Position numbers and translations under genes: made by a program. Below the pieces are notes generated by a model. It did no database searches. It was not told the origin of the DNA and saw only the letters and a program-made list of their open reading frames with translations. Positions 10,800 to 23,523 of a stretch of DNA of 27,163 nt are shown here, piece after piece. Every line of letters begins with the position of its first letter. The first letter of the stretch is position 1. The stretch is taken from the IMG/VR virus record IMGVR_UViG_2531839527_000008. One strand, given 5' to 3'. Source of the DNA: a virus. Taxonomy: Duplodnaviria > Heunggongvirae > Uroviricota > Caudoviricetes.

Positions 10800-11009
10800 A
10801 TGCATCGACTACCGGGCGAAATTCCGCAGCACAAAACTAAAAGCATCAAACTGATGGCCATCGTTCATCGTCTGCAGCAGATAATGGTCAATGAGAATTT
10901 GACACCCGCCGAGCTGGTCGGGTGTGCCGAAATAGTCAGGGATAATTACGGCAAGCTGGATAGCATCAGCAAGCCGACACATTACTCACCGCCACCACGT
11001 CGACCATAG
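10800..11009 (+). CDS. hypothetical small protein
   Basis: 69-aa ORF with GAGGG SD; flanked by the two repeat copies. Confidence 0.4.
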   Translation: MHRLPGEIPQHKTKSIKLMAIVHRLQQIMVNENLTPAELVGCAEIVRDNYGKLDSISKPTHYSPPPRRP

Positions 11010-11011
11010 AT

Positions 11012-11080
11012 AACGCCGCCGGAGCTGAAACTCGCTTTCAGGTCTGGCGGGGTTGAACAACGAGCTACGCGAGGCGTTAG
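11012..11080 (+). repeat. 69-bp repeat element copy 2
   Basis: Begins 2 nt after stop of ORF 10800..11009; 60/69 identity to copy 1. Confidence 0.6.
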
Positions 11081-11142
11081 CCGGTCATAGCGTCGCAAAT
11101 ACTTCAACCGTCTGCTGGTTAAATAATTCGAGGTTTTTGGAC

Positions 11143-11337
11143 ATGCAAAATCCCCTTTCATCGAAAAATGACCCGTTTGCCGATTGGGCAAAGAATCTGA
11201 CTTTAATGGCTTTAAATAACGACCTGAGCTCTCGCGAGGGGGAAAGCTACACCGCAAAAATGGTCGGGCAGGCCGGTAAAGATGAGCTATCAGTCGTTAT
11301 CAAACACCTGTTAAATCACATCAGAATGCGCAAATAA
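11143..11337 (+). CDS. hypothetical small protein
   Basis: Internal ATG 11143 with GAGG upstream preferred over ORF-track start 11053, which lies inside repeat copy 2. Confidence 0.35.
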   Translation: MQNPLSSKNDPFADWAKNLTLMALNNDLSSREGESYTAKMVGQAGKDELSVVIKHLLNHIRMRK

Positions 11338-11353
11338 GAGGAACTATATAAAT

Positions 11354-11455
11354 ATGTTATCTCTCGTTTATGAAAATCCGTGGACGACGATTTTTCTGAT
11401 GATTGTTGCCAGCATGTGCCTCAACAGTGTTATTGGCGCATTGCGCGGCCATTAA
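11354..11455 (+). CDS. candidate 33-aa hydrophobic peptide (not on ORF track)
   Basis: ATG 11354 preceded by AAGAGGA; encodes MLSLVYENPWTTIFLMIVASMCLNSVIGALRGH with one predicted TM helix; followed by intrinsic terminator. Confidence 0.3.
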   Translation: MLSLVYENPWTTIFLMIVASMCLNSVIGALRGH

Positions 11456-11474
11456 TCGCGACAAAACCAGACTA

Positions 11475-11503
11475 AAACCGGCACCCTGAATGCCGGTTTT
11501 TTT
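11475..11503 (+). terminator. rho-independent terminator ending the early/SOS transcription unit
   Basis: AAACCGGCA-CCCTGAA-TGCCGGTTT stem-loop followed by T-run. Confidence 0.7.
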
Positions 11504-11663
11504 ATGCCATTTTTCCGCGAATTTCCCGTTTTTTAGTCGTGCATGCATCAGGTGCATGGTTTTGCATGCGTCAGTCTTGCCCGTTCTGTCCGTGCGCCGC
11601 CAGAGCTAGCGCGGATCCAGAGTTGTCATGCAACTGCATTAAAACCGCCCCATAAAGCGGGCA

Positions 11664-11682
11664 GGCGTGGCGGGGAAAGCAT
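11664..11682. other. cos cohesive-end site (P2/186-like 19-mer)
   Basis: GGCGTGGCGGGGAAAGCAT, very close to the remembered P2 cos GGCGAGGCGGGGAAAGCAC; lies between early region and Q as expected. Confidence 0.6.
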
Positions 11683-11901
11683 TGCGCGCCAGCAGTGATG
11701 CGTAATAATAAAAATTATCCTCTGAGCGCGTCGTGATGGCGCTGTCGTGGTCGCTGCTGGTTCGTTGGTGGTCGAGTGTGTTCGTGCGCGTGAGACGCAT
11801 CTGATGCGTGATGGTGGTGTGCATGGAAAAGCCACCAGGAGCAGCGGCTTTACAGGAGTGGCAGGATTCAAACTGCTAATTATGTTTCTACTATGATTAA
11901 A

Positions 11902-12906
11902 CTAATTTACATGTATGTAGAGTTCACCGTCGCCAGACCAATCGGGACACTCTAAAACAAGCCCAAACTGCTTGAATATTTCATCAATGATTATTGTTAT
12001 CTCCCGAAAATCACCAAAACCTGTAATGTGCTGGTCATTAAACTTCCCATAAAGATTCTGAAAAGCAATGCCTAATTCTGATAATTGATATCTTATCTTT
12101 GAGTTGGATAGTGTAAGGGATAGCTTTGGATCGTATTCTTTAATATTGATGTTTAGAGAATGGACATAACCCATCGCATAAGCATAAGAGTTGATGATTA
12201 GCCTGATACGTTTTTTTACTTCAAGATACATGTCATTCAGAGAAATATTACCGTACTTATAACCCCAGATGAGTTTTTCAATCTCGTCAGATACTTCATT
12301 TACAACAGTGTCAAGATTCTCTAAAAATAAATCGACAGTTTCTTGAGGGGCAGACCCCGAAGACATGTAATTAGCGAGATATTCAGACCATGCACGCGTG
12401 GCTGAGATAAGAAGCGCGCTACCATACTCGTTGACTGTAAAGTTTTGGGCTAAGCATGTTAGTAAGTTTTTTTCATGTACGTGCACTAATTCATGGTGAA
12501 TGCGATGGATGACTGCGAGGTATCCTTCTTCTTTCAGTTTTAAGAAGCTACCATCATTGAAAAGCTCAACAAAAAAATCAATCGATAGCACAAGGGTATA
12601 TTCTTCATATAGCCCATCATTGCCAATTTTTGTTACTAACTGCCCGACGGCTGCGCCCTGTTTGCTATTGGTAAATGAACTAGGGGATTTGTGTTGGTAA
12701 GAGGATGTTACCTTTTGAAGAGCTTCACTGAAGTTATAGGAAACAATCACGCATTTTAATTTGGAGATATCAAGATTGAGATTCTTTGTTAAAGCTCGGA
12801 TAGCTTCTAGTGTGAAATTACCGATATTATTTGCTTCTTGCTCAGTAGCGAAACCTTCGAGGGTTATTTTAAAATCAGTTTCCAAAATATTAATCTCCGC
12901 GCCCAT
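11902..12906 (-). CDS. AT-rich cargo protein with HExxH motif (putative zinc metallo-hydrolase), candidate defence/exclusion gene
   Basis: 334-aa ORF in visibly AT-rich DNA inserted between cos and portal gene; IHRIHHELVHVHE with HELVH encoded at 12481..12495 (minus). Confidence 0.6.
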   Translation of the reverse strand: MGAEINILETDFKITLEGFATEQEANNIGNFTLEAIRALTKNLNLDISKLKCVIVSYNFSEALQKVTSSYQHKSPSSFTNSKQGAAVGQLVTKIGNDGLYEEYTLVLSIDFFVELFNDGSFLKLKEEGYLAVIHRIHHELVHVHEKNLLTCLAQNFTVNEYGSALLISATRAWSEYLANYMSSGSAPQETVDLFLENLDTVVNEVSDEIEKLIWGYKYGNISLNDMYLEVKKRIRLIINSYAYAMGYVHSLNINIKEYDPKLSLTLSNSKIRYQLSELGIAFQNLYGKFNDQHITGFGDFREITIIIDEIFKQFGLVLECPDWSGDGELYIHVN

Positions 12907-20718: not shown

Positions 20719-20863
20719 CCCGAAAACCAATGGTGACCTGAGCGCGGATATCCGCCGTCTTGAGGGCGCGCTGACTGCCTGCGCGCTGCAGGTCAAAACC
20801 GTCAAACACTGTCAGGATGAACTCGATGCAGAAGCACAAAAGCCTGCGCAAGGCGCTGATTAA
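20573..20863 (+). CDS. lysC: LysC (Rz1-like outer-membrane lipoprotein spanin), embedded out of frame in lysB
   Basis: Lipoprotein-type signal with LCVGC, proline-rich; alternate-frame overlap with the lysB 3' end. Confidence 0.6.
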   Translation: MKMKPFAAGITLLYLMLCVGCTPDPPAPAPVIVVSGCPRVSLCPMPGSDPKTNGDLSADIRRLEGALTACALQVKTVKHCQDELDAEAQKPAQGAD

Positions 20864-21293
20864 CGCTGTACCCCAGCTCAGAAACAACCCCGATATGCTG
20901 CGTCTTTTCGCCGACAACGGGCATATCGATTCCCGACTGGCGAGCTCGCTGTCGTTTGAAAAGGTGTACGTGCTTAACATGGTGGTGACCGACTTTACCG
21001 GCGACCTCGATTTGATATTCGTGCCAGTGCAGGCGTGGCTGCGTGAACATCAGCCGGACATTATGACCACCGACGACGGGCGGGAAAAAGGATTCACCTG
21101 GATTATTGATATCAATAACGACGATTCGCTCGATATCAGTATCAGCCTGAGGCTCACCGAGCGCACGCTCGTCAAAGAGGTCGACGGCGCGCTGCATGTC
21201 AGCTATGCCCCAGAGCCGCCGCTGCCTGAGCCGGTGACGCGCCCGGTCGAGCTGTACGTTAATGGCGAACTGGTGAGTAAGTGGGATGAGTGA
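20826..21293 (+). CDS. R: tail completion protein (P2 gpR family)
   Basis: LRLFADNGHIDS..., FEKVYVLNMVVTDFTGDLDLIFVPVQAWLREHQPDIMTTDD..., ELYVNGELVSKWDE, matching remembered gpR. Confidence 0.82.
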   Translation: MQKHKSLRKALINAVPQLRNNPDMLRLFADNGHIDSRLASSLSFEKVYVLNMVVTDFTGDLDLIFVPVQAWLREHQPDIMTTDDGREKGFTWIIDINNDDSLDISISLRLTERTLVKEVDGALHVSYAPEPPLPEPVTRPVELYVNGELVSKWDE

Positions 21294-21741
21294 GTTAACC
21301 GCGCTACAGGAACGTCTTGCCGGTCTGATTGCCAGCCTGTCACCGGCGGCGCGTCGGCAAATGGCGGCTGACATTGCAAAAAAACTGCGCGCCAGTCAGC
21401 AACAGCGCATTAAGCGCCAGCAGGCACCTGACGGCACCCCGTATGCCGCCAGAAAGCGCCAGCCGGTGCGGAGCAAGAGAGGCCGTATCAGGCGCGAAAT
21501 GTTCGCCAAACTGCGCAGCACTAACCGCTTTATGAAAGCCAAAGGCAGCGACAGTGCGGCAGTGGTGGAGTTTACCGACAAGGTACAGCGCATGGCGCGG
21601 GGGCATCAGTACGGCCTCAAAGACCGGCCAAACCGCAACAGCCGGGATGTGCAGTACGAGGCACGCCCGTTGTTCGGTTTCACCCGGGACGATGAACTGC
21701 TTGTTGAGAAGCTAATAATCGGAGCTATTAGAAATGGTTAA
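21286..21741 (+). CDS. S: tail completion protein (P2 gpS family)
   Basis: 151 aa; LSPAARRQMAADIAKKLRASQQQRIKRQQAPDGTPYA pattern as in gpS. Confidence 0.8.
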   Translation: MSELTALQERLAGLIASLSPAARRQMAADIAKKLRASQQQRIKRQQAPDGTPYAARKRQPVRSKRGRIRREMFAKLRSTNRFMKAKGSDSAAVVEFTDKVQRMARGHQYGLKDRPNRNSRDVQYEARPLFGFTRDDELLVEKLIIGAIRNG

Positions 21742-21792
21742 TTAACAAAAGCATGCTAACTCTTGACAATTTGACAACTAGAGTGCACCCTA

Positions 21793-21845
21793 ACGCCAGT
21801 CAATAGAGTGCGACTGGCGTCAAGGAAGATTTTAATCTTTCTTTA
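21793..21845. terminator. tandem hairpins between convergent S and cargo gene (putative bidirectional terminator)
   Basis: 9-bp stem ACGCCAGTC/GACTGGCGT (21793..21801, 21812..21820) and AAGATT/AATCTT palindrome followed by TCTTT. Confidence 0.35.
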
Positions 21846-21858
21846 GTGGTTCGATTCC

Positions 21859-22734
21859 CTAGCCTCGTAAATATCGTTTAGTAAATTTCGTGTTTGGTCT
21901 GGATGATAGGATTTGTCTTTCTATTTCACTATCACAGTCTATATAGTCTAGTGTATTAGCTTCTATAAGTTTGTTCACGTCAATATTTTTTGCATCGATT
22001 ATGTTGGCATTTCTAAGGTTTGCATTGGTGTATTCCACTTTATCCAAATCACACTCTCTGAGTACGCAACTTTTCATTTCCGCATTGGAAAAATCCCCAC
22101 CATATAAATAGCAGCCTTCAAAAATAACACCGTTTAACTTTGAATCCTGAGCTTTAATATTTTTTATTTTACACTTTATAAATTTTACGTTTTTCATTTT
22201 GCTCTTGCTAATATTTAATGCCTGGATTGTACATCCAGTGAAAGAACAGTCTCTTATGTTAGATTTTTCCATATTTAACCCAGATAGTTCTGAGGTTTTA
22301 AAGTGTAAGTATTTAATGGTAAAAAGGTCACCCAACTCCATTCTGGGTATGTCTATATTGAAGACACCTTTATTGTTGAGCTGTCTTATTATTTTTATTT
22401 TTTGTATTTTCAAATCAACATTAACGTGCTTAGCTAAGTTTCCCAAATCCTCAAGAAGTTCATTAATCGTTTCTTTGTTTTGTCTTCTGTATTCAAAGTA
22501 ATAAAGGATGACACCTAATACAAAAAAATCCAAAATGGATGAATTTGCATTTATTAGGAACCCAGACAGGAATGAATCATTGTAATTACCATAGTGTATA
22601 GAGGCAAGTGTTACGCCAAATGCATATAAAATAAAAATAATAAACACGTGCTTCATTTTGCATAAGGATTGTATTATTGGTTTTATGGCATCAATTTTGT
22701 TCATTGCTGCAGCAGCGAAAGATTTAAAAGTCAT
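21859..22734 (-). CDS. AT-rich cargo membrane protein with C-terminal pentapeptide-repeat domain
   Basis: 291 aa; two hydrophobic helices near N-terminus (HVFIIFILYAFGVTLASI, FLSGFLINANSSILDFFVLGVILYYF); tandem A(N/D)LxN-like pentapeptides (…TNANLRNANIIDAKNIDVNKL…); occupies the S-V junction on the opposite strand. Confidence 0.6.
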   Translation of the reverse strand: MTFKSFAAAAMNKIDAIKPIIQSLCKMKHVFIIFILYAFGVTLASIHYGNYNDSFLSGFLINANSSILDFFVLGVILYYFEYRRQNKETINELLEDLGNLAKHVNVDLKIQKIKIIRQLNNKGVFNIDIPRMELGDLFTIKYLHFKTSELSGLNMEKSNIRDCSFTGCTIQALNISKSKMKNVKFIKCKIKNIKAQDSKLNGVIFEGCYLYGGDFSNAEMKSCVLRECDLDKVEYTNANLRNANIIDAKNIDVNKLIEANTLDYIDCDSEIERQILSSRPNTKFTKRYLRG

Positions 22735-22887
22735 TCTATTTTTAATGCATTCAGATTAAATGGGATTGATGATTTTTACGTGCCCAATGATGCGTGTCAA
22801 TCAGATCTTTGAAAGTGTCTTGCTGTGTGAGCCCCTTTCCAATCCCGAAGTTTTGTCTGCAATGAAAAGAAGCGGCATGCTTACATA

Positions 22888-23523
22888 ATGAATACATCAA
22901 ATATCATTCAAGAGCTTGCCCGTGCAATACGCAACCTCATTCGCACAGGGGTGGTGACTGAGGTCGATACCGTGCAGGGGCTGTGCCGTGTACAAAGCGG
23001 CGGGATCCAGACTACATGGCTGAACTGGCTGACCACCCGAGCCGGTCGTTCGCGGACGTGGTGGGCTCCCTCGGTCGGTGAGCAGGTTCTGCTGCTGGCA
23101 ATCGGTGGCGAGCTTGATACCGCTTTCGTGCTGCCGGGTATTTTCTCCGACGATAACCCCGCCCCGTCTGCCTCGGCGGATGCGTGGCATGTGGCTTTCC
23201 CTGATGGTGCGGTCATTGAGTACGAGCCCGAGGCCGGCGCGCTGACGGCCAGCGGTATCAAAACTGCCGACGTGACGGCATCGGAGTCCATCACTGCAAC
23301 CGTACCGCTGGTACTGGTGAAAGCCTCGACCAGTATCACCCTCGACACCCCGGAGGTGATTTGCACCAATAAGCTGACGACAGCGACGCTTGAGGTACAA
23401 AAAGGCGGCAAGATGAGCGGCAATATCGAACATACCGGCGGGTCACTGTCGTCTAATGGCAAGGTACTCCACACCCATAAACACCCAGGCGACAGCGGCG
23501 GGCAAACGGGGGCACCGTTATGA
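22888..23523 (+). CDS. V: baseplate spike / assembly protein V (P2 gpV family)
   Basis: 211 aa; position and composition as in gpV. Confidence 0.85.
   Translation: MNTSNIIQELARAIRNLIRTGVVTEVDTVQGLCRVQSGGIQTTWLNWLTTRAGRSRTWWAPSVGEQVLLLAIGGELDTAFVLPGIFSDDNPAPSASADAWHVAFPDGAVIEYEPEAGALTASGIKTADVTASESITATVPLVLVKASTSITLDTPEVICTNKLTTATLEVQKGGKMSGNIEHTGGSLSSNGKVLHTHKHPGDSGGQTGAPL

Follow-up and report, generated by a model that had tools for sequence, protein, structure and literature searches.

The junction of tail genes S and V in a P2/186-like prophage of Escherichia coli, here in IMG/VR virus record IMGVR_UViG_2531839527_000008 (Caudoviricetes; 27,163 nucleotides, referred to below as the window), raises the question of what an AT-rich gene running opposite to the late genes does there, and whether it acts alone. 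The gene encodes a pentapeptide-repeat protein (PRP) of 291 residues, identical to RefSeq entry WP_001394648.1 (‘pentapeptide repeat-containing protein’), for which a preliminary description made from the DNA letters had proposed the role of an exclusion or defence factor; such a role remains plausible. We find that the best-conserved DNA of the cassette is not the gene but an element of about 65 nt that overlaps its last codons or lies just 3′ of its stop codon, and that has the form of a tRNA-like cloverleaf on the opposite strand. This tRNA-like element (TLE) is a new RNA family, with good covariation support and a strict genomic association, and it remains one even if a defence role should fail. 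That the PRP gene is always paired with a TLE suggests that phages carry here a module of two parts, for defence or as a toxin, of which no like has been described, and our working hypothesis, formed by analogy and held tentatively, is that of a prophage-borne membrane-permeabilising effector kept in check by the tRNA-like RNA.

When the Citrobacter and E. cloacae loci, whose proteins are about 50% identical, are compared by blastn, the element is the only stretch that aligns. Its strand holds GGTTCGATTCC, the signature of a tRNA T-loop, and the ‘RG-stop’, ‘GIEP’ and ‘RESNP’ peptides with which proteins of the family end are explained by reverse reading of its acceptor and T arm. Unconstrained minimum-free-energy (MFE) folding gives a cloverleaf in most of 16 copies, consisting of an acceptor stem of 4–7 bp, a small D-like arm with a loop that is often UGGU, a central hairpin of 5–9 bp with a loop of 3–4 nt, and a T arm with the loop UUCGAUU. 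As the central loop in these folds has 3–4 nt, there is no anticodon loop and the element is not a tRNA. ARAGORN called no tRNA in the window or in any family locus scanned, and searches of Rfam 15 with the TLE gave noise-level matches only (TCV_H4, tRNA-Sec, mascRNA, SNORD112). A TLE is present at every family locus examined that has the full protein architecture, in four gammaproteobacterial orders and in metagenomes, three of these loci having been identified by manual reading alone. By contrast, no TLE was found beside two distant relatives without the conserved C-terminal tail, one of which has an extra domain (L045); the other (L046, Alteromonadaceae metagenome-assembled genome, approximately 3800–4068) adjoins a CRISPR array with the repeats GTGTTCCCCACGCCCGTGGGGATGAACCG.

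A first covariance model (R1) was built from seven enterobacterial copies, with the copy of the window excluded; it found that copy (Table 1) and gave no match in loci whose S–V site is empty or holds other cargo. Genuine phage tRNAs score 14–26 bits on the TLE model. A second model (R2) matched copies outside its training set in Marinomonas (L043, 24 bits) and at L047 (30.8 bits), L048 (28.2 bits) and L049–L051 (29.4 bits), all of them on the strand opposite to the gene and at positions between an overlap of 19 nt and a distance of 47 nt past the stop codon. A Vibrio/Shewanella/Marinomonas subtype (L040–L042) was seen by eye and by MFE folding, the covariance models giving 13.5–15 bits for Aliivibrio L040 and Shewanella L041 and no match for Marinomonas L042. 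The L040 and L041 copies end in GCC-N-CCA, i.e. they encode the 3′ CCA, and have the T-loop UUCAAUU and the D-loop UGUUGG; the L042 copy has UUAAAUU and no D-loop GG, a difference that may represent tertiary covariation between D-loop and T-loop. When viral contigs were scanned with a DNA pattern, seven of the 16 matches were TLEs beside family genes, and the rest were genuine tRNAs or unrelated sequence. At the edge of a 2.7-kb viral contig (L038, 22–86, minus strand) lies a tRNA-like sequence with the D arm of the TLE (GAC-UGGU-GUC) and a central loop of 7 nt, which may be an intermediate between tRNA and TLE. In two loci of the E. cloacae type (L011, approximately 6000–6060, and L039) the 3′ end of the TLE carries the 14-nt unit GATTCCCTAACCTC three times in tandem, spanning the T-stem and acceptor strand and overlapping the end of the protein gene.

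Support for the fold comes from covariation. Across the 16 distinct copies 91.7% of cells were paired, against 66.1% in shuffles and 43–49% in slid-partner controls; 16 of the 19 pairs had changed on both sides (66 cells, against 16.6 expected), compensatory changes occurred in all four helices, and none of 500 shuffles reached the observed value on any measure. The alignment was fitted to the model and favours the structure, yet RNAalifold alone predicts the same four helices. Acceptor stems are wholly different between lineages (GAGGU/ACCUC, GCCAU/AUGGC, GACGG/CCGUC, AUAUCAG/CUGAUAU and GGCG/CGCC). With 16 loci aligned on the T-loop, a −35 hexamer TTGAC(T/A) and a plausible −10 at a spacing of 16–18 nt are found at a matching distance upstream of the element in nearly every locus. 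These results bear on the idea that the TLE is a recombination scar, an attachment site formed by a tRNA fragment captured with the cassette, or a mere terminator, and that the protein acts alone. Integration classically targets tRNA genes, the cassette is found in many settings, and neither ARAGORN nor Rfam calls a tRNA in it, all of which would fit a scar. What would not fit is a complete cloverleaf with its 5′ acceptor strand, where a 3′ fragment would be expected, nor the compensatory changes in every helix, the promoter at a fixed distance, the encoded 3′ CCA of two copies, the rank of the element as best-conserved DNA of the cassette, or the single covariance-model match in the window, with no second copy or direct repeat at the other end of the cassette. 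We therefore regard such an origin as highly improbable; in particular, because the element is complete and has its own promoter, we discarded as main explanation that it is a genuine tRNA or a fragment of an attachment site. An integron attC site, considered for the Vibrio and Shewanella copies, was likewise rejected on reading the sequences, in which the core-site consensus is not conserved.

The window copy has a short acceptor stem, the D-like arm GAC-UGGC-GUC, a central hairpin with a 4-nt loop and the T-loop UUCGAUU, and the final codons of the PRP gene (L-R-G-stop) overlap it. The preliminary description had reported hairpins and a tandem TTGACAA motif flanking the gene; these are indeed there, not as loose features but as the body, leader and −35 region of the TLE. 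The first TTGACA (21763–21768) lies 41 nt upstream of the TLE start, the same −35 distance as counted in L003; the −10 that goes with it, CACCCT (21786–21791), is weak and keeps only the A and T positions. A promoter scan offers TTAACA-17-GACAAT (21742–21770) as an alternative. The leader hairpin pairs the TLE leader with the 5′ acceptor/D-arm region as an alternative to the D arm of the cloverleaf, and it may also terminate the converging transcripts of the S operon and the PRP gene; equivalent leader pairings are present, in other registers, in L006, L012 and L044. The 8-nt TTGACAA(T/C) duplication, together with a direct repeat of TAGAGTGC (at 21779 and 21804), suggests local rearrangement of the leader.

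The protein component of the cassette is predicted to be an inner-membrane protein with an N-terminal amphipathic helix, two transmembrane (TM) helices, a linker, a basic beta-helix and a helical tail. The earlier proposal of two N-terminal TM helices and a C-terminal pentapeptide-repeat domain was borne out by Kyte–Doolittle analysis, Pfam, AlphaFold2 and Foldseek. PF13599 (Pentapeptide_4, 68.9 bits, cut-off 38) and PF00805 (Pentapeptide, 47.9 bits, cut-off 20.2) match residues ~144–250, and a strict five-residue register of about 23 repeats can be read in the sequence from ~136 to 255. In an AlphaFold2 model made from 27 family sequences (mean predicted local distance difference test score, pLDDT, 79.7) the linker and beta-helix reach 82–97, with periodic short strands in the repeats, and all 34 Foldseek matches to the PDB with E ≤ 0.001 have a pentapeptide-repeat domain. 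A quadrilateral right-handed beta-helix and Pfam scores above threshold place the protein in the pentapeptide-repeat clan CL0505. Lys and Arg residues precede TM1 and follow TM2, and the loop between the two is short and uncharged, from which we predict an N-in/C-in topology with the repeat domain in the cytoplasm.

It had also been proposed that the repeat domain might mimic DNA; tethered to the membrane, the protein would then bind nucleic-acid enzymes, for instance gyrase or enzymes with which phages process DNA, and inhibit them. In its fold class the domain belongs with MfpA, Qnr and AlbG, all three among the top Foldseek matches. However, the repeat domain is basic (pI 8.9, net charge +5), which makes DNA mimicry unlikely, and the same holds for most of the 14 relatives computed (pI 7.7–9.6; one is near neutral, 6.8). 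Models of the Qnr, MfpA and McbG type score far below their cut-offs (NCBIfam: Qnr 38.3 bits against 240, MfpA 28.5 against 360), and the domain has only about six coils, with no dimer-forming C-terminal repeat extension evident. We consider DNA mimicry barely credible. Within the repeats the best-conserved stretch is a basic belt at residues 176–195 (SKSKMKNVKFIKCKIKNIKA) with a charge of +8.

The repeats are not, for all that, the most conserved part of the protein. A word-indexed search recovered 27 clusters, all from Enterobacterales and 47–96% identical, in whose alignment TM2 is the most conserved feature; its motif N61-A-N63-S64-S65-I-x-D68-F..L-G..L-Y-Y-F-E is invariant in 27 of the 27 enterobacterial cluster representatives, with the polar residues on one face of the helix (i, i+3/4, i+7). 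When 1.84 billion representatives were searched exhaustively with the profile, about 40 more clusters, of 250–345 residues, matched it end to end, and so have the same architecture at less than 50% identity. One homologue, P0092 (371 residues), has a potassium-channel pore in place of the two-TM module (Ion_trans_2, 46.3 bits, cut-off 22.5, residues 79–152, filter TTLGYGD), followed by the linker, repeats and tail of the family, and its locus has a TLE. In hhalign the family profile and P0092 match with a probability of 99.7% (window residues 61–291 to P0092 130–369), TM2 falling on the inner helix of the channel. As this alignment begins only within TM2, we read the P0092 pore as a swapped membrane module, and it is no proof that the two-TM module is itself a channel. 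A sequence between TM1 and TM2 of many two-TM relatives, FPNT(T/S)(L/I)G(L/I)Y(N/D)K.FW, was considered as a degenerate potassium filter and rejected, there being no Ion_trans_2 or IRK match at E ≤ 1.

In the mechanism that we propose for an effector restrained by its RNA, the TLE would be made as a cloverleaf RNA of about 66 nt from its own promoter, transcribed towards the 3′ end of the protein gene. The protein would oligomerise, TM2 with its polar N-x-N-S-S-x-x-D stripe forming an ion-conducting or membrane-disrupting pore and the cytoplasmic repeat domain acting as gate or sensor. In an uninfected lysogen, constitutive TLE RNA would bind the basic repeat domain as a guard or antitoxin and keep the effector off; if a superinfecting phage stopped host transcription, or degraded or modified tRNA-like RNA, the TLE RNA would be lost, upon which the pore would open, the membrane depolarise and the infection abort. 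In P2-like phages the TLE lies on the late-operon strand right after S, and lytic read-through would raise the levels of TLE and antisense RNA and spare the resident phage. That the cassette stands for a new class of two-component immune or toxin module, in which an RNA gates a pore through the basic pentapeptide-repeat domain, is a proposal that we hold to be doubtful.

Several observations weigh against this scheme. The membrane part of the AlphaFold2 model is poor (pLDDT 43–65); no channel domain was detected in the window protein, which like its two-TM relatives has no Ion_trans or IRK match even at E ≤ 1; the basic belt could equally face anionic lipids; and no model of PADLOC-DB 2.0 matches the window protein, P0014, P0069 or P0092. 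On the side of the RNA, the window TLE is the most divergent enterobacterial copy, with three clean acceptor pairs, a weak T stem, a weak −10 and an unremarkable folding energy (z = −0.87), so that its identification rests on family homology and not on its own thermodynamics, and the strand of the TLE was assigned from the promoter and a modest excess of G-U over A-C appositions (8 against 3). Lastly, the convergent, overlapping layout is a more usual pattern in antisense (type I) control than in RNAs that bind proteins. The cassette may be pictured as a type I-like toxin–antitoxin (TA) or addiction module, with the membrane protein as toxin and a convergent RNA whose action, as antisense or through transcriptional interference, would be confined to the mRNA 3′ end in cis; the tRNA-like fold would serve processing or stability (RNase P/Z) and not the binding of a protein, and the module would stabilise the prophage or cassette and sense no phage. 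The layout is convergent at every TLE-bearing family locus, enterobacterial TLEs overlap the coding 3′ end by 11–33 nt, the cassette moves as gene, RNA and both promoters, and the gene for P0092 sits between metH and the ccdAB genes. Yet the overlap is not conserved (in L040, L041 and L047 the TLE ends 3–5 nt past the stop codon, in L048 47 nt past it), an antisense regulator needs no conserved cloverleaf with a D-loop GG and the T-loop UUCGAUU, and a protein of 291 residues with a cytoplasmic domain of about 210 is unlike the peptides of less than about 60 residues that are type I toxins. Control of this kind is in our estimation unlikely.

Superinfection exclusion, in which the inner-membrane protein would block entry of an incoming genome in the manner of Sie/Imm-type proteins without killing the cell, and the TLE would be regulatory or insulating with no direct role, is favoured in that the gene is a prophage moron, has a promoter of its own and lies beside tail genes, and in that its product is predicted to be in the inner membrane. 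It leaves unexplained why a structured RNA is so strictly inherited with the gene in different orders and contexts, and why one homologue has a potassium-channel pore, and no similarity to an annotated exclusion protein was found, the protein matching PHROG 12514 (E 1e-159), whose function is given there as unknown. For these reasons we judge simple exclusion to be distinctly improbable. The candidate promoter of the window gene (Table 1) lies in an upstream region that differs from that of other enterobacterial cassettes; in L003, L006, L010, L011, L012 and L021, whose cassettes have otherwise diverged, a conserved promoter-like motif, CTACACAA-N-CATGTAT(C/A/G)AT (TACACA-18-TATnAT), precedes the PRP start by approximately 70–120 nt.

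The S–V junction is one of the three moron regions of P2-like genomes and is occupied by the 261-bp orf30 in P2 and by a hypothetical ORF of 741 bp in phage R18C (PMC6823313), and the earlier assignment of the gene to the position of P2 orf30 is thus upheld. Among E. coli prophages whose S and V genes are close relatives, the junction may be empty, with a 68-bp spacer (L002), or hold a 52%-identical relative of the window protein (L003, found also in phage vB_EcoM-613R3) or an unrelated hypothetical protein of 347 residues (L004). Since related prophages have the site empty or otherwise filled, the PRP gene, which in addition to its position and variability has an atypical composition, is accessory cargo at the orf30 moron site. 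Its AT-richness and its own candidate promoter of the sigma-70 type are traits usual in morons. The family is rare in E. coli, being present in 18 of 5,426 complete genomes, four of them with the allele of the window. Relatives occupy the S–V junction, invariably in the orientation opposite to the late genes, in prophages of Edwardsiella, Enterobacter, Klebsiella, Yersinia and E. coli. Besides the metH–ccdAB site of P0092, further settings of the family are the end of a lambdoid prophage, with a yedK-like gene on one side and umuDC-like genes on the other, a chromosomal islet of small unknown genes, and a place beside ogr where a P2-like prophage ends; no protein-coding partner is common to the different genomic contexts of the family loci examined. 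A single 1.5-kb unit, made up of about 380 bp of upstream DNA, the gene, the TLE and the TLE promoter, is all that Citrobacter L006 and Yersinia L021, whose contexts are unrelated, have in common. In another P2-like prophage (L047, GCA_026672695.1, 462–5772) the S–V island holds a protein of 262 residues with a faint HEPN (PF05168) match, the PRP gene with its TLE, an unknown protein of 236 residues and a DUF2645 protein, so several cargo genes can accumulate at this site.

The window comprises the left two-thirds of the prophage, which is integrated between yfiB and rplS, and sequence identical to it was found in four complete E. coli genomes. Among the strains with an identical cassette are E. 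coli JKHS016, N21, E1535 and E1739. Genes R, S and V were assigned by Pfam with E-values of 1e-19 to 1e-42. As had been described, an AT-rich ORF of 291 codons occupies the S–V junction on the opposite strand (G+C 0.31–0.33 over 21800–22800, against 0.55–0.62 on either side). That it is inserted between S and V is correct as to position but not as to boundary: compared with the empty site of L002, homology ends at about 21695/21696, inside the last ~15 codons of S, and restarts at about 22871, 17 bp before V, so that the exchangeable unit is slightly larger than the intergenic region. These last ~15 codons of gpS (21696–21741) vary with the cargo that follows, reading DELLVEKLIIGAIRNG in the window, DEQMIEDVIIRHLGK at the empty site and other versions in L003 and L004, which places the recombination boundary of the cassette inside S. 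Coordinates of all features are collected in Table 1.

Table 1. Features of the S–V junction and its cassette (positions in the window)
Feature	Position	Strand	Basis
gpR gene	20817–21293		Pfam
Left-flanking tail completion gene gpS, which ends a late operon	21286–21741	+	Pfam Phage_tail_S, E 6.5e-31
Variable AT-rich cassette at the S–V junction, including the last ~15 codons of gpS	21696–22870		Comparison with empty-site prophage L002; G+C 0.31–0.33
Tandem TTGACAA(T/C) motif, −35 region of the TLE	21763–21777 (repeats 21763–21769, 21771–21777)	+	Sequence; 16 aligned promoters
Leader hairpin, CGCCAGTC...GACTGGCG	21788–21825 (arms 21788–21801, 21812–21825)	+	Inverted repeat, 14-nt arms, 86% complementary
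TLE, 66-nt cloverleaf, convergent with the PRP gene, 11-nt overlap	21804–21869	+	R1 38.9 bits, E 3.3e-8, sole match in the window; R2 64.8 bits; MFE cloverleaf
PRP gene (291 aa, ATG start; stop codon 21859–21861)	21859–22734	−	ORF; PF13599, PF00805; PHROG 12514; RefSeq WP_001394648.1
Conserved C-terminal helical tail, residues 256–291, enterobacterial consensus ...LDYI.CD.EI......KF...RG	21862–21969	−	Family alignments
Pentapeptide-repeat right-handed beta-helix, residues ~136–255	21970–22329	−	Register; AlphaFold2 pLDDT 92–97; Foldseek
Cytoplasmic helical linker, residues ~83–135, LLEDL.NLAKH...L.I.KIKIIRQLN	22330–22488	−	AlphaFold2 helices 90–100 and 106–121, pLDDT 82–92; conserved in alignments
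Predicted TM2, residues ~56–80, polar-stripe motif	22495–22569	−	Kyte–Doolittle; family alignments; hhalign to P0092
Predicted TM1, residues ~29–49	22588–22650	−	Kyte–Doolittle, 19-residue windows up to 2.02; AlphaFold2 helix 28–47, low pLDDT
Candidate sigma-70 promoter of the PRP gene, TTGACA-17-AAAAAT, ~38 nt 5′ of the ATG	22772–22800	−	Promoter scan, 10/12 matches
Right-flanking baseplate spike gene gpV, which opens the next late operon	22888–23523	+	Pfam Phage_base_V, Phage_spike, Apex

The prophage has cargo at a second place. Its cos-proximal hotspot, between the DinI-like and portal genes at the position of old/tin in P2, holds an ORF of 334 codons (11902–12906, minus strand) and small ORFs (10800–11871), for which no Pfam or PADLOC match was found, and it is itself an uncharacterised candidate defence locus. 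The systematic study of P2 hotspots dealt with the cos-proximal old/tin locus only. If our reading of the S–V cassette is correct, the orf30 site, the third and least studied cargo site of P2-like phages, would gain a concrete and testable occupant, and a family annotated everywhere only as ‘pentapeptide repeat-containing protein’ would be paired with a structured RNA absent from Rfam. No description of the family, of the RNA at the S–V site or of a PRP paired with a tRNA-like RNA was found in the literature searched, a search that left most subscription journals outside. Were the cassette to represent the new class of RNA-gated module that we hold to be doubtful, the cell would monitor the integrity or supply of a tRNA mimic, and depolarisation would be triggered by phages that cleave, modify or sequester tRNAs and by those that stop host transcription. 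If the RNA controls the membrane protein, a compact system of one gene and one RNA would also become available for the study of gated membrane permeabilisation.

How the cassette compares with known systems is clearest from the site itself. With P2 orf30 and other S–V morons it shares the position and the character of non-essential, AT-rich DNA that varies among relatives; unlike it, orf30 (261 bp) and the R18C ORF (741 bp) are not reported as pentapeptide-repeat proteins, and no RNA partner has been described at the site. The DNA-mimicking PRPs of the MfpA and Qnr type are soluble, strongly acidic, gyrase-binding dimers. The window protein has the right-handed quadrilateral beta-helix of MfpA, Qnr, AlbG and McbG, which are among its top structural matches, but it is predicted to be membrane-anchored and its repeat domain is basic. 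The TLE resembles tRNAs, the tRNA-like domain of transfer-messenger RNA (tmRNA) and mascRNA in its predicted four-way cloverleaf, D-loop GG, T-loop UUCGAUU and acceptor, two copies encoding CCA, and one TLE scores weakly with the tRNA-Sec and mascRNA models; it differs from a tRNA in having no anticodon (central loop of 3–4 nt) and an acceptor of 4–7 bp. In type III TA systems of the ToxIN class, a constitutive structured RNA neutralises a protein effector, which is freed when the RNA is lost on infection. A protein effector checked by a structured RNA is the likeness that we propose, whereas antitoxins of the ToxI type are tandem-repeat RNAs that precede the toxin gene on one transcript and are processed by the toxin, an endoribonuclease, and the cassette has a single convergent cloverleaf and a membrane protein without a nuclease domain.

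The nearest comparison is with HalA, the effector of the Hailong system. According to two secondary sources (PMC13276650; bioRxiv 10.64898/2026.02.27.708500), HalA combines pentapeptide repeats with an IRK-type potassium-channel domain whose effect is to depolarise the membrane; a nucleic-acid ligand, an oligodeoxyadenylate made by HalB, keeps it inactive until phage nucleases consume that DNA. Both proteins join a membrane module to a cytoplasmic pentapeptide-repeat domain, and both are found on P2/P4-type mobile elements (bioRxiv 10.64898/2026.02.27.708500). HalA is also the best NCBIfam match of the window protein, whose homologue P0092 has a real potassium pore. The structure of HalA with oligodeoxyadenylate (PDB 9nyi) is a weak match by sequence (E 0.004) and by Foldseek (E 0.01), and membership of the HalA family (NF051894) was rejected, with 42 bits against a cut-off of 250 (E 6.7e-11) over positions 18–128 of the 338 in the profile. 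The domain order is moreover reversed, the membrane part being N-terminal in the window protein and the repeats lying, by match coordinates, near the N-terminus in HalA, and no HalB-like nucleotidyltransferase was found beside the window gene, in the cargo regions of the window or next to any homologue examined. The window protein is thus not a member of the HalA, Qnr or MfpA families, lacking their defining scores, partner gene, channel domain or charge. Classed among known kinds, the cassette would be a prophage-borne membrane effector with a nucleic-acid partner; the analysis shows how the protein is built, that its gene is cargo, that the TLE exists with its structure and strict linkage, and that a homologue has a potassium channel, and pore formation, binding of the RNA by the protein, the trigger and a defence phenotype are what we infer. 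An encoded RNA would here, by analogy with type III TA systems, replace the ligand: where that of HalA is oligodeoxyadenylate made by an enzyme, the candidate ligand here is an encoded tRNA-like RNA. If the RNA does control the protein, the recently found nucleic-acid-guard principle would apply not only to DNA made by an enzyme but also to a tRNA mimic encoded in the genome, and the cassette, 1.2–1.5 kb in length, carried by P2-like and other prophages and islands of gammaproteobacteria and known also in a variant with a potassium pore, would be the RNA-ligand counterpart of the DNA-gated Hailong guard.

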